Virus record (IMG/VR): IMGVR_UViG_2885686650_000001
Coordinates: 730 to 64,729 of that record
Origin: a virus
DNA length: 64,000 nucleotides
Strand: one strand, 5' to 3'
Both the position numbers and the translations under genes were made by a program. Under the pieces are notes generated by a model. The model searched no databases and was not told the origin of the DNA. It saw only the letters and a program-made list of their open reading frames with translations. Every line of letters starts with the position of its first letter. The first letter of the stretch is position 1. Below, one piece after another: positions 4,348-49,546 of the stretch.

Positions 4348-4377
4348 TGTCTATTCCTCCAACCCAGACCCAAAGTC

Positions 4378-4437
4378 TGCTATAATATTTTTGTACTGAA
4401 TTACTACCCAAAGACACTGTGCCCGCAGTGCCTTTTT
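4378..4437 (+). ncRNA. Candidate antisense micro-transcript between cI and the ATPase gene
   Basis: TGCTATAAT at 4378-4386; hairpin CACTG-tgcccg-CAGTG (4415-4430) followed by a T-run. Confidence 0.45.
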
Positions 4438-4451
4438 ATTTACATAAATAT

Positions 4452-5228
4452 TTAGAGAATAACAATTCCGTGAATTTCAAATTCATCATCCTTAGTTATT
4501 TCAATTGGCTCATATTTTGGATTAAGTGAAATTAATTCGCACTTATTATCTTGACACCAAAATTTCTTTACATAAGCTTTTCCATTCAAGTAGCCTATAA
4601 TAATTTGGCCACTGTAAGCCTCGGTAGCACTCTTTACAAAAATAATCTGCTGATCAGCAAAAAGTGGTTCCATTGAATCACCGTTAACTAATAAAGCATA
4701 GTCATGTGCTGGGACGTGGCCATGATAAGAAACAACATTATGCTCCTCATCCATTAAGACTTCACCGACGCCGGCACTAGCGGCACCATAGATAGTTACA
4801 TCAGTATATGTATTACTATCTTCATTGATATGATCAACAAGATTAATTACACCATCTTGCTCCTTCAGCTGATTCTGAGCGTAAGTATAGACTTTGTGCT
4901 TACGATTCTGATCTAATTGCCTAATTATTAGAATGTGATCCGATTCTTCGGAAGATATTTCAGATGGTTTAACGTTTGATTGTTCTAGTTCTTGATTATT
5001 AATATCTGATGATGAATTATTATTGTTTGACCAACCCATTAAGAATTGCGGAGTGGTATGAAGAATTTTTGCTATTTCTGAAATAACTGAAATTGGAACT
5101 TTATCTATATCGCCATTTTCATAGCGAAAAATTGTTGATCGAGAGACGCCTAATTTATCGGCTATTAGGTCTGCACTAATATGAAGTACTTTGCGTCTCT
5201 GCTTAATTCTTTCTCCTACTGTGGTCAT
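4452..5228 (-). CDS. cI: CI-like repressor, XRE HTH plus S24 autopeptidase
   Basis: N-terminal HTH; YGAASAG cleavage region, NGDSM catalytic Ser, YVKK catalytic Lys; start placed at ATG 5228 from GGAGGT spacing. Confidence 0.95.
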   Translation of the reverse strand: MTTVGERIKQRRKVLHISADLIADKLGVSRSTIFRYENGDIDKVPISVISEIAKILHTTPQFLMGWSNNNNSSSDINNQELEQSNVKPSEISSEESDHILIIRQLDQNRKHKVYTYAQNQLKEQDGVINLVDHINEDSNTYTDVTIYGAASAGVGEVLMDEEHNVVSYHGHVPAHDYALLVNGDSMEPLFADQQIIFVKSATEAYSGQIIIGYLNGKAYVKKFWCQDNKCELISLNPKYEPIEITKDDEFEIHGIVIL

Positions 5229-5390: not shown

Positions 5391-5636
5391 TTGGTTGACG
5401 TTGATAAATTGAAGAAAATAATTAACGAGCGATCATCACAGGAGATAGTTGCAAAAAAAATCGGTGTTGACCGAAGCACTTTTTATAGAAAGTTAAAAAA
5501 GGGTGGCAATTTCAAGGTGAGGGAAGTTCAGCAATTAGTCAGCGTAATTCCTTTGACTGATGATGAAGCAATTTCCATTTTTTTTAAACCTAAAGTCGCA
5601 AAAACGCTACTTAATAAAGGTGGTGAAAAGGGATGA
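5391..5636 (+). CDS. cro: Cro-like HTH protein
   Basis: Divergent from cI; SQEIVAKKIGVDRSTFYRKL HTH; TTG start after AAGGAG. Confidence 0.85.
   Translation: MVDVDKLKKIINERSSQEIVAKKIGVDRSTFYRKLKKGGNFKVREVQQLVSVIPLTDDEAISIFFKPKVAKTLLNKGGEKG
5595..5610. promoter_or_regulatory. Fourth operator-like site within the cro 3' end
   Basis: GTCGCA-AAAA-CGCTAC fits the operator consensus. Confidence 0.6.
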
Positions 5637-5833
5637 ATGAATTGCTTGCAACTATTAATAAAGCAATTGACTGCTACTTGATTGATTTACAAAGTAATAA
5701 AAAAACCTTTGCAGACGTAAGCAGAGAATTACATCAACAAAGGTTTGATCATAGCAAAAGTGATTTAGAGATTGCAGTTTTAAACGAGCTACAAATCAGA
5801 AATCAAGCTAACGCTATGAAGAAAATCATTTAG
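5633..5833 (+). CDS. Hypothetical early protein
   Basis: ORF with RBS AAAGGTGGTGA, overlaps the cro stop. Confidence 0.65.
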   Translation: MNELLATINKAIDCYLIDLQSNKKTFADVSRELHQQRFDHSKSDLEIAVLNELQIRNQANAMKKII

Positions 5834-8310: not shown

Positions 8311-8504
8311 AAAAATGACAAAAAAATAGCCGTTGCCAAGGCAACGACCATCCATAACTCTTCCAAGATTCAGTATACACCTGTTGTGGATTTGGTCAAT
8401 AGAAAGCTTGTTCTGCAAGCTTTTTCTTTCGCCCCGGTAACGACTGATGCGAGCTTGTATTGGGTATTAACGTTAGCACGAAACTAAGGCAAGGAATTGA
8501 AATC

Positions 8505-33028: not shown

Positions 33029-34180
33029 TCAAAGTGCAGATAGCGCGTCAACAGTGGCTTTTACCTCGGTGTCTTCCAAACTCTTTAATAGATGAGTGTA
33101 CACATTCTGAGTCATGGTAACATTACTATGACCTAACCGCCGAGAAATATAATTAATGTTGATGTGTTTGTAAATCAAGAACGAAACATGAGTGTGTCTT
33201 AAGCCGTGGAAAGTGATTGGGTCAGATATACCTAGCTCTTTTTCTAGTGCCTTGAGACTGCGATTTATTGACGAATTAGAGGGTACCTCGTGTCTGGCAT
33301 TACGAAAAACCAAATTATACTTATCACGGTATCCCTGATACAGATAAACCTCAGACTGTTCTTTTTTTAACCGATGTAGCGCAATTAAAAGATTGTCGGA
33401 AACATCAATTATTCGAACGCTTGATTTATTTTTTGTTTTGGTGAATCCAGACCTAAATTGGTAATCCCAAGTCTTGTTAATATTGATTTGCTTATTCTTA
33501 AAATCGACATCTTTCCAAGTTAATCCAAGAATTTCGGAATATCTTGCGCCCGTCAGTGCACCGGTTGCAATCAGATAATAGGGGAAATGCTCAGAATAAT
33601 TGGCAAACTCAGTTGTAGTGTTGATTAGCTTCTTAAAATCATTCAATTCTAAATACTTAATTTTACTTTCTGTCTGATCATCAGGTATGCTAACGCCATT
33701 GGTAAAATTGGAGTAAACAATCTGGTCATCAATTGCGTTATTGACCATGCTGCGAACGTAGCCATTAAGCTTGCTAATTGTATCTTTTGAGCGCCGTTTT
33801 GGAATACGGCGGTCCTTACCAGTAGAAAAGTCATTGATAAATTCTTGCCAATCGCTTTTGGTGATGGTCTTTAATTCCCGAAGTGGACCAAAGTATTTCA
33901 TTAATTGGCCACGAATAATGGTATAGCGTTTTTCTGTTATTTCTGCATGCTTGCCAGCCTTAAATAATTCTATCCAGCGGTCCCAATAATCCATAAAAGT
34001 AATTGTGCTATTATCTAATGTCGCGCCGTGGGCATATTTAGTTTCAATTTCTAGGCTGGCATTTTCGGCTGACCGTTTTGTTTTAAAACCCGACTTACTT
34101 ACATATTTACGCTTGCCGTCTTTATCGATATAACTAACTCGATATTGCCAAGACTTTCCACGTTTCATAATATTTGCCAT
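33029..34180 (-). CDS. int: Tyrosine integrase of prophage 2
   Basis: TGARYSE, KTK, HGLRHTH, RLGH...TQNVYTH catalytic set. Confidence 0.97.
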   Translation of the reverse strand: MANIMKRGKSWQYRVSYIDKDGKRKYVSKSGFKTKRSAENASLEIETKYAHGATLDNSTITFMDYWDRWIELFKAGKHAEITEKRYTIIRGQLMKYFGPLRELKTITKSDWQEFINDFSTGKDRRIPKRRSKDTISKLNGYVRSMVNNAIDDQIVYSNFTNGVSIPDDQTESKIKYLELNDFKKLINTTTEFANYSEHFPYYLIATGALTGARYSEILGLTWKDVDFKNKQININKTWDYQFRSGFTKTKNKSSVRIIDVSDNLLIALHRLKKEQSEVYLYQGYRDKYNLVFRNARHEVPSNSSINRSLKALEKELGISDPITFHGLRHTHVSFLIYKHININYISRRLGHSNVTMTQNVYTHLLKSLEDTEVKATVDALSAL

Positions 34181-44657: not shown

Positions 44658-44782
44658 CCAAAAAGGTGCCGACAGATTGAAATAGGCGTGTTATGGTTAT
44701 AGCATGATAAATTTAAGTGAGAGCAACTGTTTCCGATTTGGAAATGGTTGCTCTTCTTATGTTGTTAAGGGAGGTGATAGCC

Positions 44783-45118
44783 ATTGCAGAACTAAGAGCT
44801 GACAGACAAGGACCACACCGTGTTGCTTTCAATAAGAACAAGAAGATTATACTCAAGACTCAATCAGTCTGTGGCATCTGTGGTAGGCCAGTTGATAAGA
44901 CGTTGAAGGCGCCTGACCCAATGAGTCCAGTCATTGATCACATCATACCGATTAATAAGGGCGGACATCCAAGTGACATTAACAATCTGCAGCTGGCTCA
45001 CTGGAGTTGCAACCGACAGAAGTCTGACAAGTTGTTCAACGTCGTCAAGGAAGAGCCGAAAGTTCTTGGCAATCGAAACCTTCCACAAAGCTGTGATTGG
45101 TCGTCTTACAAGGGATAA
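44783..45118 (+). CDS. HNH endonuclease (probable ATT start)
   Basis: RADRQGPHR...CGICG...IDHIIP...NLQLAHWSCN. Confidence 0.9.
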   Translation: MAELRADRQGPHRVAFNKNKKIILKTQSVCGICGRPVDKTLKAPDPMSPVIDHIIPINKGGHPSDINNLQLAHWSCNRQKSDKLFNVVKEEPKVLGNRNLPQSCDWSSYKG

Positions 45119-45176
45119 AGAATAGTTAATATTATTTATCCAATTGTTTTTAGAACGTTTCTGACGATAGATTAGA

Positions 45177-45240
45177 GGGGGGATACCTCCACCTCCTCAG
45201 CGACACGCGACCTTCACGCTGTCACTGTACATATTTTCTC
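45177..45240. other. Probable packaging-site region
   Basis: G6...ACCTCC...CCTTCACGCTGTCACTGTAC between HNH and portal. Confidence 0.35.
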
Positions 45241-45264
45241 TTGAGTGAGAAAGGAGTTGGTAAA

Positions 45265-46539
45265 TTGAGTTATCGAGGTATGAATTATTTAAGAAATAAG
45301 CTTAATAGCAGGCGTTCGCGTGTTAATATGCGCTATCGCCAATATGCAATGAAATATCAGGATGCGGAGGTTGGTGTCACGATTCCGACACAACTTCGCG
45401 GTCGCTATCGCTCAGTTTTAGGTTGGTGTGCGAAGGGCGTCGATTCACTTGCTGATCGTTTGGTTTTTCGAGAGTTTGATCATGATGATTTCGAAGTAAA
45501 CGAAATTTTTCAGCAAAATAATCCGGATGTTTTCTTTGACAGTGCGGTATTATCCGCTTTGATTGCCTCATGCGCCTTTATTTATCTGTCAAAAGATGAA
45601 AATAACCAGGTTCGGCTGCAGGTTATCGAAGCTAGTAATGCGACTGGCATTATTGATCCAATTACTGGACTGCTGACCGAGGGTTACGCCGTTTTGAGTC
45701 GTGACGATTATGGCAATCCTACTTTGGAAGCTTATTTTATTCCTGGCATTACATGGTTTTATCCAAAAGATGCGAGTCCGTTCTCAGTTACAAATAATGT
45801 TAGCTCGCCACTGCTTGTTCCAATTATCCATCGACCTGACGCCGTTCGCCCCTTTGGCCGTTCGCGCATTACGCGTTCGGGGATGTATTATCAACGATAT
45901 GCGAAGCGAACACTTGAACGTGCTGATATCACGGCCGAGTTTTATAGTTTTCCGCAAAAATATGTTACTGGTATTAGCAATGAAGCAGAGCCACTTGATG
46001 GTTGGAAGGCGACTGTTTCTAGTATGCTTCAATTTACTAAAGACGGTGATGGCGATAGACCGACGCTGGGACAGTTCACGACGCCGGCGATGACGCCGTT
46101 TACCGAACAATTGAAAACTGCAGCAGCTGGTTTTGCTGGTGAAACTGGATTGACAATGGACGACTTAGGATTTGTGTCAGAAAATCCGTCAAGTGTTGAG
46201 GCAATTAAGGCAAGTCATGAGAACTTGCGATTGGCCGGCCGTAAAGCGCAGCGCTCATTTGGTTCCGGATTACTTAACGTAGCGTACTTGGCAGCTTGTT
46301 TGCGAGATGATTATCCATATTTGCGGAATCAGTTCGCATTAACTTTACCAACTTGGGAGCCATTATTTGAAGCTGATGCTAGTATGCTGAGTCTAATCGG
46401 CGATGGTGTTGTTAAGCTAAACCAAGCAATTCCAGGATTCATTGATAAGAACGTAATTCGAGATTTAACCGGCGTGAATGGTTCAGCAGCTGCTGGACAG
46501 CCAGCAGCTAATTTAGGAGCTGATGCGAATGGACAATGA
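45265..46539 (+). CDS. Portal protein (SPP1 gp6-like)
   Basis: GWCAKGVDSLADRL, PFGRSRI, AEFYSFPQKY. Confidence 0.92.
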   Translation: MSYRGMNYLRNKLNSRRSRVNMRYRQYAMKYQDAEVGVTIPTQLRGRYRSVLGWCAKGVDSLADRLVFREFDHDDFEVNEIFQQNNPDVFFDSAVLSALIASCAFIYLSKDENNQVRLQVIEASNATGIIDPITGLLTEGYAVLSRDDYGNPTLEAYFIPGITWFYPKDASPFSVTNNVSSPLLVPIIHRPDAVRPFGRSRITRSGMYYQRYAKRTLERADITAEFYSFPQKYVTGISNEAEPLDGWKATVSSMLQFTKDGDGDRPTLGQFTTPAMTPFTEQLKTAAAGFAGETGLTMDDLGFVSENPSSVEAIKASHENLRLAGRKAQRSFGSGLLNVAYLAACLRDDYPYLRNQFALTLPTWEPLFEADASMLSLIGDGVVKLNQAIPGFIDKNVIRDLTGVNGSAAAGQPAANLGADANGQ

Positions 46540-47746
46540 TATTGTTCCTGGGCTATTAGCAGATATTCAGAAGCAATTTTACCTCGAGACAACTCAGTCA
46601 AAAAAGTTGAAGGCTGCATTATTAAAACTAGAAAAAAATAAGGCTACTTATCAGGATGTCAATGAATTTGCTATTGAGGTTGGAGAAACTTTATCAAAAG
46701 TTCTAAGCGACAATATTTATAGTGAGATCCTACCTGATCAAAAAATGTATTATAATATCGCTCAAAGAATTTTAGAGCCAACCTTGAAGAATAATTATGA
46801 TCTGATTTCTGGCTATGCTGCAGACGTACAAAAAAGTCTGAATCAAGCAGCAAATCTCAATTTAAAAGCCCAGGTGCCAGAATATAATCAAGATCGTACG
46901 AATGGCATTATCAACAGAGTTTCATCAGAAGAAAATTTTGACGATATTAAATGGATTCTTGATGATCCTATTGTCAATTTCTCTCAGAGTGTGGTTGATG
47001 ATTCGATTAGGGAGAATAGTGAATTTCAGGCGAAAGCAGGGTTAAGACCAAAATTAATTCGTAGGGTATCAGGACATGGTTGCGCATGGTGTCGTAATTT
47101 ATCGGGATCATATGATTATGGAGATGCCCCTGAAGATATTTATCGACGCCATGATAATTGCAGGTGCACAGTTGATTTTCAACCTAGTAGTGGCCGCCGA
47201 CAAAATGTTTGGTCGAAGAAGTGGTATAAATCACAAAATGATGCTAAAATCGAAGTAAGAAAGAATATTGGCGTCTTAGTTGAAAGCGGCGCTAAAAATT
47301 ATGCGCGGGACGAGAGTACAGATTTTCTTTTTTCAAAAGAACATGTTCGAAGGCAAAAGTATGCCTTTACTCAATACGACGAAATTAAAAATAGTGATCA
47401 GAATTTAGAAAAGAGAAAAATCTATTCAAACATTAGGAAGTATAAGTCCATGAGTGATTTCTCTAAGCGTGATGTGGATATTGCGTTTGATCATGTTTTT
47501 AATGACATTCATGATTTAGAAAATGGTAAGGGGCTTTTTACTCCGGACCCTGATATGGCATATTCTTGGACCCGCTTAATAAATGATGAGTCAATACGAG
47601 AGCACGATTTAATTCTGTTAAGACATGAGCGCTGTGAGAGAGATTACATGAAAAAAGGCATGGACTATCATAAGGCGCATGTTGAAACGGATAGTAAGTT
47701 TGATTATGCTGGAGCATTGAAAAAATATAAAGAAGGGAGAAAATGA
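46523..47746 (+). CDS. Minor head (MuF-like) protein with C-terminal toxin-like extension
   Basis: CAWC...HDNCRC at ~aa 190-215; ~150-aa extension with PDPDMAYSWTRL...HERCE...YHKAH. Confidence 0.8.
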   Translation: MRMDNDIVPGLLADIQKQFYLETTQSKKLKAALLKLEKNKATYQDVNEFAIEVGETLSKVLSDNIYSEILPDQKMYYNIAQRILEPTLKNNYDLISGYAADVQKSLNQAANLNLKAQVPEYNQDRTNGIINRVSSEENFDDIKWILDDPIVNFSQSVVDDSIRENSEFQAKAGLRPKLIRRVSGHGCAWCRNLSGSYDYGDAPEDIYRRHDNCRCTVDFQPSSGRRQNVWSKKWYKSQNDAKIEVRKNIGVLVESGAKNYARDESTDFLFSKEHVRRQKYAFTQYDEIKNSDQNLEKRKIYSNIRKYKSMSDFSKRDVDIAFDHVFNDIHDLENGKGLFTPDPDMAYSWTRLINDESIREHDLILLRHERCERDYMKKGMDYHKAHVETDSKFDYAGALKKYKEGRK

Positions 47747-47973
47747 TGCTTACCTATAAATTGATTGATATTGTTGACGGCTTTTATCATTATGAGATTT
47801 ATCCTGAAGGTAAAGTTGCCGACAAGGGAACGCTTATTTTTAATCCCCTCACTAAAGTTGTAAAAACACTAATTGAACCTAATAGCCCATTTGATTGTTT
47901 GGGTCATTTTGCACAAGATTTTGTTGGCAAAAATGGTGAGTTTAAGGAATCAGGAATGGTAGCGTGGTATTGA
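47743..47973 (+). CDS. Putative immunity protein
   Basis: Small ORF coupled (ATGA) to the toxin-like gene; YEIYPEG...G motif; ends AWY. Confidence 0.65.
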   Translation: MMLTYKLIDIVDGFYHYEIYPEGKVADKGTLIFNPLTKVVKTLIEPNSPFDCLGHFAQDFVGKNGEFKESGMVAWY

Positions 47974-48043
47974 ATATCTATTAAGTAATTCAACAATGGA
48001 ACGTGTTAAAGACACGTTGAAAGATATTAAGGAAATGATTCTT
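47966..48043 (+). pseudogene. 3' remnant of a YjcQ-like gene
   Basis: GIEYLLSNSTMERVKDTLKDIKEMIL with no start, overlapping the immunity stop. Confidence 0.55.
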
Positions 48044-48049
48044 GAATGT

Positions 48050-48081
48050 AGCACTCGACAAAATATTGAGTGCTATTTTTG
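48050..48081 (+). terminator. Terminator after the toxin/immunity cassette
   Basis: TAGCACTC-gacaaaatatt-GAGTGCTA then T-run. Confidence 0.75.
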
Positions 48082-48148
48082 TACCATAAATTTTTGACCC
48101 AAGCATGTCATTAAACTGCGGTGGAAACATGATTGAAGGGGGATTTGT

Positions 48149-49546
48149 ATGACTACTAAAGCAAGACTTGGTAATCAGCATCCTACTCAATCGGTGATTT
48201 TACCATTTACTAATTCTTTATATGAAACTGCAATTGAGACTTACGAGAAATCGGGTCGCAAAGCCCAGGAGTGGCAGGTTGAATTAACCAAAGATATTTT
48301 TGCGGTGAATGATGAAAATTTGTGGACGCACACAAAATTTGGTTACAGCTTGCCGCGGCGAAATGGGAAAAATGAAGTTGTGGCAATCCGTGAAATGCAA
48401 GGCTTACAAAATGGCGAACAAATGCTTCATACGGCACACCGAACGACTACTAGTCATTCGGCTTGGGAACGTCTACTGAGGTTACTTGATAAGGCAGGCA
48501 TTTATTATGAGTCGTTACGCGCAACTGGACGAGAAAAAATTGAAATACCTGATACTGGTGGTCGAGTTGAATTTCGAACGAGAACTTCAACTGGCGGTTT
48601 AGGTGAAGGTTTTGATTTATTGGTAATTGATGAAGCTCAGGAGTATACAGCTGATCAAGAATCATCGTTAAAATACGTTGTAACCGACTCAGATAATCCT
48701 CAAACGATTTTTTGCGGGACACCGCCAACGCCTTTATCTTCTGGAACTGTTTTTGTAAACTTTCGGAATGAAGTGTTAAGCGGAAAATTGCAAAATGCGG
48801 GTTGGGCTGAATGGGGCGTTTCAAAGCAATCTGATGTGAGAGACCGTGCACTTTGGTATGAATGTAATCCTTCTTTAGGAACGGTTTTTACAGAACGTTC
48901 GATTCAAGACGAAATCGGCTCTGATGTGATTGATTTTAATATCCAGCGGCTTGGTCTTTGGATTAAATACAATCAAAAGTCAGCAATTTCTGAAAATGAA
49001 TGGGATGAATTGCAAGTGAAGTCATTACCAATATTAAGAGGACCGTTGTTTGTTGGTATCAAGTATGGCAATGACAATGCAAATGTGGCCATGAGCGTGG
49101 CCGTTAAAACTTTATCCGGAAGAATTTTTGTTGAGGTCATTGATTGTCAGTCGATTAGAAACGGTAATCAATGGATCATCAACTTTTTGAAGAAAGCTAA
49201 CGTTGCTAAAGTTGTTGTTGATGGTGCCAGTGGCCAAAATATTTTATCAGGCGAAATGAAGGACTTTGGAATAAAAGAACCTTTATTACCGACTGTTAAA
49301 GAAGTGATTATGGCCAATTCGTTGTGGGAGCAAGGTATTTACGGAGAAAGTATTTGTCACGCTGATCAACCGTCGTTAAAAACCGTTGTTACTAATTGCG
49401 CCAAGCGAAATATTGGCAGTAACGGCGGTTTTGGGTATAAGTCGCAGTTTGATGATATGGATATTAGTTTAATGGATAGTGCGCTGTTAGCGCATTGGGC
49501 TTGTGTAACGCTCAAACCCAAGAAGAAACAACAAATCAGGTATTAA
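48149..49546 (+). CDS. terL: Terminase large subunit
   Basis: PRRNGKN Walker A, LLVIDEAQ Walker B, GTPP. Confidence 0.95.
   Translation: MTTKARLGNQHPTQSVILPFTNSLYETAIETYEKSGRKAQEWQVELTKDIFAVNDENLWTHTKFGYSLPRRNGKNEVVAIREMQGLQNGEQMLHTAHRTTTSHSAWERLLRLLDKAGIYYESLRATGREKIEIPDTGGRVEFRTRTSTGGLGEGFDLLVIDEAQEYTADQESSLKYVVTDSDNPQTIFCGTPPTPLSSGTVFVNFRNEVLSGKLQNAGWAEWGVSKQSDVRDRALWYECNPSLGTVFTERSIQDEIGSDVIDFNIQRLGLWIKYNQKSAISENEWDELQVKSLPILRGPLFVGIKYGNDNANVAMSVAVKTLSGRIFVEVIDCQSIRNGNQWIINFLKKANVAKVVVDGASGQNILSGEMKDFGIKEPLLPTVKEVIMANSLWEQGIYGESICHADQPSLKTVVTNCAKRNIGSNGGFGYKSQFDDMDISLMDSALLAHWACVTLKPKKKQQIRY

Follow-up and report, generated by a model that had tools for sequence, protein, structure and literature searches.

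A MuF-Family Head Protein with a Swappable C-Terminal Domain and a Coupled Partner Gene: A Probable Polymorphic Toxin Module of a Temperate Siphophage

Introduction

MuF toxins are abundant in the prophages of gut and dairy Firmicutes, and most of their C-terminal extensions are listed as “unknown”. Here, we describe a module of this kind from a 64,000-nucleotide stretch of viral DNA (IMG/VR record IMGVR_UViG_2885686650_000001, positions 730 to 64,729; hereafter, the window). The module consists of a gene for a MuF-family minor head protein that ends in a domain which we call X, and of a small gene, Y, which overlaps the 3′ end of the MuF gene. We consider it reasonably probable that the module is a MuF-family polymorphic toxin, that is, an injected effector with a cognate immunity protein, carried by a temperate siphophage. 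To judge from the sequence comparisons described below, X and Y would represent a new toxin domain and partner family inside a known kind of system.

The closest described systems are the MuF toxins of Jamet et al. 2017 (PMC5576092). The MuF3 profile used in that study was seeded on a segment (amino acids 1–252) of gp35 from Streptococcus mitis phage SM1, and a S. mitis phage MuF toxin and the small open reading frame (ORF) downstream of it were reported to be homologous to a MafB toxin–immunity module. The window protein resembles these MuF toxins, and SM1 gp35/gp36 in particular, in its MuF3 N-terminus, in that its gene comes after that of the portal, in the junction at which the extension begins, and in the small ORF that overlaps its 3′ end. 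It differs from the SM1-type phages, which have another C-terminus and a 59-amino acid ORF, in that its payload consists of X and the 76-amino acid Y. In the scheme of Jamet et al., X would belong to the “C-terminal extensions without known domain”.

Of the architecture that we propose for X–Y, only one case has been characterised by experiment, that of the Apk toxins. Apk2 combines MuF with a (p)ppApp synthetase toxin and has the immunity proteins IapK and Aph1, of which IapK neutralises the toxin by binding, and in Apk1 that toxin domain is borne by a PAAR protein from a type VI secretion system (T6SS), with adjacent immunity genes (PMC12226406). As in Apk1 and Apk2, X is found both on phage MuF proteins and on tip proteins of contractile injection machines, with a partner gene adjacent. 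Apk2 has a RelA/SpoT-like fold, and its reaction is known, whereas neither a fold nor a reaction can be recognised for X.

The head domain of the window protein is homologous to SPP1 gp7, phage Mu gpF and r1t ORF28. SPP1 gp7 is a minor head protein located in the capsid at the portal (PMC12226406). Unlike the window protein, these short MuF proteins have neither a C-terminal payload nor a small partner gene. The location of X at the C-terminus is also like that of the effectors on evolved VgrG/Pvc8 spikes, which occur in T6SSs and in extracellular contractile injection systems. The VgrG/Pvc8 proteins that carry X itself differ from MuF–X in their delivery machine and in having a partner of 173–175 amino acids instead of Y; both combinations are uncharacterised. 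Finally, where enzymatic domains are joined to MuF, Iyer et al. 2017 (PMC5512222) interpret them as effectors that are delivered with the DNA. The window protein is like the polyvalent proteins of that study, which belong to phages and conjugative elements, are effectors delivered with invading DNA, and have MuF as a hub domain, but differs from them in that it has one payload, accompanied by a partner gene of its own. The LPD and other Pfam families to which that work gave rise do not include X.

Results

The MuF3 Head Domain

The 407-amino acid ORF and the CRC motif of its head domain, both of which were part of the original prediction made for this DNA, were borne out. The protein matches PHROG 2494 far beyond chance (Table 1), and the CRC motif (C213-R214-C215) forms the end of a CxxC...HxxCxC pattern (C187, C190, H210, C213 and C215) that is invariant among MuF3 relatives. 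The better start codon is the ATG at 46529, which yields a protein of 405 amino acids and is preceded by the sequence GGAG (46516–46519) with a 9-nucleotide (nt) spacer. Residue 3 of the longer frame is the first residue in the homologues and in a database record, which also favours this start. Residue numbers below refer to the 407-amino acid frame.

Amino acids 3–253 are 50% identical to amino acids 1–252 of SM1 gp35 (E = 5e-96), and the 254-amino acid minor head protein of Lactococcus phage r1t (ORF28) aligns with the same region along its entire length. Since the homology to r1t and SM1 gp35 reaches amino acid ≈250–253, the added domain comprises ≈150 amino acids. The original prediction was thus correct in postulating an additional C-terminal domain, but its placement of the end of the head domain near amino acid 215, with an extension of ≈190 amino acids, has to be revised. 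The match to PF25310 (VG15) was weak (E = 0.006), and there was no match to PF04233 (Phage_Mu_F, or MuF1) at E ≤ 0.1; within the MuF superfamily (MuF1–4), the protein belongs to the MuF3 branch.

When 50,697 phage records were searched by tblastn, the N-terminal part of the protein was found in 97 of them. Only 13 of the 97, from Streptococcus suis and S. mitis phages, covered at least 80% of the length of the protein. A copy of Y detectable by BLAST was present in 11 of these 13 near-full-length records, and in no other record. Javan330, one of the two others, has an ORF of 79 amino acids with a diverged sequence at the position of Y.

Domain X

The X family was collected by searching 1.84 billion representative proteins with amino acids 250–407 (E ≤ 1e-3), which yielded 773 clusters at 50% identity. 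Among the top 148 clusters, the accompanying domains were PF04233 Phage_Mu_F (43 clusters), PF06152 Phage_min_cap2 (22) and PF25310 VG15 (18); most of the remaining proteins were either short or of the MuF3 type. X is located at the extreme C-terminus, even in proteins in which a zincin-like or CdiA_C-like segment is inserted between MuF and X.

In an alignment of 42 family members, residues H324, F339, R351, E369, E372 and M376 were invariant, and the near-invariant residues included D362, H368, A385-H386 and Y395. The main motifs read F-D-H324-V-F326, P341-D-P-D-M-A-Y-S-W349-T-R351-L, H368-E369-x-x-E372-x3-M376 and Y-x-x-A385-H386. The C-terminal motifs that had been picked out from the single sequence coincide with these conserved columns. 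The AlphaFold2 model of X was confident, with a predicted local distance difference test (pLDDT) value of 94.8 and a predicted template modelling score (pTM) of 0.88, and comprised seven helices and one beta hairpin. Residues D362, H368, E369 and E372 are all located on one long helix in this model (model residues 111–128). The conserved pattern of His, Glu, Asp and Arg residues, set in a confidently predicted structure, appears enzyme-like. From the conservation pattern and the secondary structure of the model, in which four of the residues fall on one face of the long helix, the site would probably be a metal-binding or acid–base centre made up of H324, R351, D362, H368-E369, E372 and H386.

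X had no match in Pfam, NCBIfam or PADLOC, and no significant match in the PDB, either as a single sequence or as a profile. The sole PDB profile match, to the ejection protein gp50 of PhiM1, was insignificant (E = 0.68), and a Z score of 3.4 was obtained to the same particle. Foldseek returned no relative of the fold from the PDB or from the Swiss-Prot part of the AlphaFold Database (AFDB), and a search of the AFDB clusters and the ESM Atlas with the X model returned only members of the X family. The fold predicted for X is apparently new, and the domain was rightly called uncharacterised from the outset, as neither Foldseek nor the library searches produced a known relative. One AFDB cluster member was labelled “Rhs family protein”, by name only, as its sequence was not inspected. 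A feature search of the Atlas pointed to a cluster with Pyocin_S in 37% of its members (score 0.81), but this lead could not be verified.

Several known enzyme families were considered for X by their motifs, and were rejected or received no support. In a zincin metallopeptidase, an HExxH motif would be expected, but the window protein and most members of the family lack its second His (H368-E369-x-x-E372). There was also no peptidase among the Foldseek and VIA-align matches (best Z = 3.8, unrelated), although the absence of a match does not exclude a zincin fold. An HD phosphohydrolase is disfavoured by the lack of conservation of the His that precedes D362; for HEPN, the Rx4-6H motif is missing; and for Fic/Doc, the contiguous HxFxDGNxR motif is missing. 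None of these three families had any support from the fold. The same was true of the MazG-like pyrophosphatases, which were considered on account of their ExxE motif.

Gene Y and Its Pairing with X

As originally predicted, X is followed by a 76-amino acid ORF coupled to the MuF gene through an ATGA overlap; it is preceded by a GGGAG ribosome-binding site and matches a PHROG family (Table 1). Homologues of Y form 26 clusters, with conserved residues Y17 and P21-E22 and a conserved A-W-Y at the C-terminus. The AlphaFold2 model of Y (pLDDT 94.6) is a five-stranded sheet with one helix. Comparison of this fold with the PDB by Foldseek and VIA-align gave a best Z score of 4.8, and the matches, GNAT-like and cap-binding fragments, were unconvincing. 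Nothing was found for Y in Pfam, NCBIfam or PADLOC, or by sequence and profile searches of the PDB.

Six distant X loci were examined by hand, and in all six a homologue of Y was located directly 3′ of X. In five of them, Y was a separate ORF of 76–79 amino acids that abutted or overlapped the end of the X gene, and in the sixth it was fused to X in frame. A larger sample, comprising 80 viral loci from IMG/VR and 80 species-representative genomes, was drawn with a 10-sequence alignment as the query. Two of the IMG/VR loci and one of the genome loci were truncated, leaving 157 testable loci. In every one of these, X was C-terminal and was followed at once by an ORF of 75–100 amino acids, which the profile recognised as Y in 127 cases. 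Broken down by source, Y was recognised in 73 of the 80 IMG/VR loci, starting between −13 and +26 nt relative to the X stop codon, while five had an unrecognised ORF of 82–88 amino acids directly after X and overlapping its 3′ end. Y was recognised in 54 of the 80 genome loci, and a further 25 had an unrecognised ORF of 76–101 amino acids that started between −55 and +9 nt from the X stop codon. The unrecognised ORFs share the pattern of Y, and many end in ...(A/M)W(Y/F/G/C), like the recognised ones. The genomes with X belonged to Enterococcus, Lactobacillaceae, Clostridia, Lachnospiraceae, Oscillospiraceae and Selenomonadales, with a few metagenome bins of other phyla.

In phages, the coupling of X to Y is thus obligate. 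The small ORFs downstream of MuF toxins are shorter than 150 amino acids, and this is true of Y, with its 76 amino acids, and of its equivalent at all of the testable loci. A small partner gene that is present at all of the testable loci is what a self-harmful activity needs.

Overlapping, co-transcribed genes are also found in type II toxin–antitoxin systems, and promoter-like hexamers were somewhat enriched in the region (15, compared to 7.1 ± 2.6 in shuffled sequences). X and Y might accordingly be regarded as a toxin–antitoxin, abortive-infection or superinfection-exclusion pair that acts inside the lysogen and is not delivered by the virion. We consider this very unlikely. In essentially all phage copies, the toxin part is fused to a virion protein encoded in the late operon, and injection spikes carry X as a fusion as well (see below). 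Furthermore, the toxin gene comes first and the partner gene follows, which is the order found in polymorphic toxins, and there was no match in PADLOC.

Exchange of Payloads on the MuF3 Scaffold

The sequence beyond the MuF3 domain differs between related phages. Clyde and Javan330 share with the window both X at the C-terminus and a Y ORF of 76–79 amino acids. The r1t MuF protein ends at 254 amino acids, with no extension and no small ORF. In the pneumococcal phage IPP45 and in Javan182 from S. equi, MuF3 is followed by an unrelated C-terminus of ≈200 amino acids and a DUF7675 ORF. In pSY22 and SM1, there is a third type of C-terminus with an ORF of 59 amino acids, which in the pSY22 copy matches Cys_rich_CPCC; gp35 of SM1 is 403 amino acids long, and the 59-amino acid gp36 overlaps its 3′ end. 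Payloads are thus exchanged on MuF3 at one shared junction, which is the polymorphism known from MuF toxins. A polymorphic C-terminus combined with a small ORF is the defining architecture of polymorphic toxins. Conversely, the X–Y pair is a mobile cassette that occurs behind at least four MuF subfamilies.

The ≈200-amino acid domain linked to DUF7675 is likewise uncharacterised. Alternative MuF3 payloads were seen at loci L011:1807–3424, L012:1801–3478, L013:1807–3187 and L182:5211–6591.

X on Contractile-Injection Spikes

X was found in three of 400 other genomes that had been sampled evenly from the same phylum. In this sample, X formed the C-terminus of a 1034-amino acid protein, encoded in a genome of 6.9 Mb, whose N-terminal region matched four VgrG/GPD models, all of them weakly. 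Named homologues of this protein are annotated as “contractile injection system protein, VgrG/Pvc8 family” in Paenibacillus and as “late control protein” in Brevibacillus. These VgrG/Pvc8–X homologues are 950–1070 amino acids long and carry PF05954.

Three spike loci share the same gene order (Table 1), in which a PAAR-like DUF4280 gene is located 5′ of the VgrG/Pvc8–X gene and a conserved protein of 173–175 amino acids, with 45–57% identity among the three, is encoded directly 3′ of it. An Imm11 match was found a few genes upstream of the spike–X gene in two of the loci (L019 and L101), a second VgrG gene was present upstream in L100 and L101, and pentapeptide-repeat genes were present in L019 and L100. 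In P. durus, the spike partner is 273 amino acids long and has a match to Imm3. The 173–175-amino acid partner is unrelated to Y. The spike-borne X domain retains H324, F339, P341-D342, W349, K/R351, H368-E369, E372 and M376. VgrG/Pvc8 spikes have thus acquired X without Y, whose place has been taken by a different downstream protein. X is in this way shared with another family of proteins that deliver polymorphic toxins. The exchange of Y for another family is typical of immunity proteins, and would not be expected of an obligatory cofactor.

The spikes also bear on the possibility that X and Y have no enzymatic or toxic role but assist in the structure or assembly of the head, for example by binding to the DNA end, the portal or the scaffold, with Y as an assembly chaperone. 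The MuF gene is located within the head-morphogenesis module, its PHROG family is labelled “minor head protein”, and the statistically insignificant PDB profile match mentioned above is to an ejection protein. Nevertheless, VgrG/Pvc8 spikes have no capsid, and close relatives such as r1t and phiLC3 build their heads with a 254-amino acid MuF protein that comes without X or Y. The conserved His, Glu, Asp and Arg residues, moreover, form a pattern of the catalytic-site type. We therefore consider a role in the head very unlikely.

The Prophage and Its Packaging Module

Gene calls and library matches indicated a temperate siphophage with a complete-looking set of genes at ≈33–64 kb of the window. 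The lysogeny genes encode a tyrosine integrase (33029–34180, minus strand), an ImmA-like protein and a helix-turn-helix repressor. They are accompanied by recombination and replication genes, which lead to the genes for HNH, portal, MuF, large terminase, scaffold and major capsid proteins, and from there to the tail and lysis genes. Positions 8460–32355 and 33029–64000 correspond to two different prophages in tandem, and the MuF–X–Y module is present in the second only. The genome that carries the window contains a single copy of X and a single copy of Y.

Table 1. Positions of the module and of the features that surround it in the window, and of three loci with spike-borne X.
Feature	Position	Strand	Basis or description
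MuF3–X fusion gene	46523..47746	+	407 amino acids; PHROG 2494 “minor head protein”, E 2.8e-122
MuF3-type minor head (portal-associated) domain, amino acids 3–253	46529..47281	+	SM1 gp35 identity; r1t alignment; weak PF25310
Domain X, amino acids ≈255–400	47285..47722	+	Representative search, family alignment, AlphaFold2 model; predicted all-alpha with one beta hairpin
Gene Y, candidate immunity protein or inhibitor	47743..47973	+	76 amino acids; ATGA overlap with MuF stop codon; phrog_36787, E 2.8e-16
Portal protein gene	45241..46539	+	phrog_104 portal, E 5.7e-123; weak SPP1_portal match; directly 5′ of MuF gene
Terminator-like hairpin	48048..48082	+	11-bp stem, 7-nt loop, then U-run; pattern scan
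Large terminase gene	48149..49546	+	phrog_9 terminase large subunit, E 1.9e-70; downstream of payload cassette
Spike loci	L019:2057-6084; L100:3279-7883; L101:3610-7437		Order DUF4280 (PAAR-like), VgrG/Pvc8::X, 173–175-amino acid partner

The portal gene overlaps the start of the MuF gene. The module is thus embedded in the head and packaging genes of the prophage, which is the position in which MuF toxins are found. The packaging module as a whole (44717–49546) has the unusual order HNH, portal, MuF (with the cassette) and large terminase, which is common to r1t, SM1, IPP45 and the Javan phages. In SM1, a cos site is annotated between HNH and portal. The stretch between the MuF and terminase genes collects further small ORFs along with the payload cassette.

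A terminator had been predicted to follow the small ORF. A hairpin with a U-run is indeed present, inside the 175-nt gap between Y and the terminase gene (Table 1), but it is located 75 nt past the Y stop codon and ≈70 nt before the terminase gene, and the region shows no excess of terminator-like sites over shuffled sequence (2 observed, 1.8 expected). The RNA fold of the Y–terminase intergenic sequence had a z score of −2.67. Just past the Y stop codon, an open frame on the plus strand (47966–48091) reads GIEYLLSNSTMERVKDTLKDIKEMI... and is 29% identical to the C-terminus of a YjcQ-family gene that is located 3′ of Y in another locus (L009). This frame may be the remnant of a downstream gene that was lost.

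Discussion

If the module is an injected toxin with its cognate immunity protein, the MuF3 domain would, by homology with SPP1 gp7, bring the protein in a few copies to the portal within the capsid. X would be a candidate enzyme that reaches the cytoplasm of the next host cell together with the DNA. Y, presumably produced in equimolar amounts through the coupling of the genes, would bind X and neutralise it in the producing cell during assembly of the virions. A MuF protein with a swappable C-terminal payload and a cognate small gene is what had originally been predicted from the window alone, and this assignment is now supported by the homology to MuF3, by the C-termini of the sister phages, by synteny, and by the re-use of X on spikes.

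Not all of the observations fit, and the following weigh against this interpretation. In a high-GC protein of 5865 amino acids (P0014), X occurs internally four times (E = 1e-22 to 1e-26), at amino acids 1954–2074, 2095–2214, 4351–4471 and 5565–5685, with nearly all of the conserved residues intact. There is no Y and no other recognisable domain in this protein, the remainder of which has no relatives in Pfam, the PDB or the Atlas. It fits a multi-effector “polyvalent protein” in the sense of Iyer et al. better than a simple toxin–immunity cassette. AFDB matches suggest that there are more internal X domains in actinobacteria. In another protein (P0057; L008:2749–4464), a homologue of Y (amino acids 408–487) is fused in frame to a Phage_min_cap2–X protein, which is odd for an immunity protein and is the sole case among the 148 representatives and 160 loci.

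The expression of Y also raises difficulties. The gene is part of the late operon, and its translation is coupled to that of the MuF gene. On its 5′ side, there are no more than weak promoter-like matches, and it has no evident promoter of its own; no extra copies of Y were found in the same genome. The earlier statement that lysogens are immune consequently finds no support in the arrangement of the genes. The structural comparisons, finally, did not link X to the known fold of any toxin, nuclease or peptidase, or of any other enzyme, including when the model was aligned with 48,161 chains by VIA-align (best unrelated Z = 3.8), and the HExxE sequence of X differs from the HExxH motif of the zincins.

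Two of these proteins allow for more than one explanation in themselves. The four-X protein may be either a multi-warhead or a polyvalent protein. The X–Y fusion is known from a single contig and may be natural, or may result from a one-base indel or an assembly artefact.

Because of the four-X protein, the X–Y fusion and the actinobacterial matches, the idea of a non-lethal effector stays alive. According to this idea, X would be injected to act early, in host takeover or counter-defence, and Y would be a chaperone, a packaging adaptor or a temporary inhibitor. MuF-fused enzymes were read as DNA-delivered effectors by Iyer et al. (PMC5512222), the four-X protein, which lacks Y, resembles a polyvalent protein, and in some phages a zincin-like domain precedes X in the same polypeptide. 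The existence of one in-frame fusion and the position of Y in the late operon, with no evident promoter of its own, point in the same direction. Nonetheless, we consider a non-lethal role unlikely, given the small partner gene that is strictly coupled to X at each of the 157 testable loci and the replacement of Y by another family on the spikes, where X is found amid Imm11, Imm3-type and PAAR-like genes, which is the setting of an antagonistic toxin.

A more far-reaching version of the toxin interpretation is that X is a new class of enzyme, with a new fold and a novel toxin reaction based on the H...R...D...HExxE...H pattern, that is used as a warhead acting in the cytoplasm by phage capsids, by spikes and, in several copies, by giant actinobacterial proteins, and that Y and the 173-amino acid protein are inhibitors that evolved independently. 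We regard this as possible, if rather doubtful.

In the interpretation that we prefer, the module is a MuF-family toxin with a cognate immunity protein, and its significance lies mainly in the identification of the payload. The (p)ppApp synthetases are the only type of MuF payload that has been resolved biochemically. X has now been delimited as a family of 773 clusters from Lactobacillales, Clostridia, Negativicutes and beyond, with a confident model, candidate catalytic residues, a partner and a second delivery context. The family is therefore directly testable, and both a toxin chemistry and an inhibitor fold that are new could come from it. X–Y would also help to show how newly infected cells, or competitors, are manipulated by the temperate phages of lactic acid bacteria.

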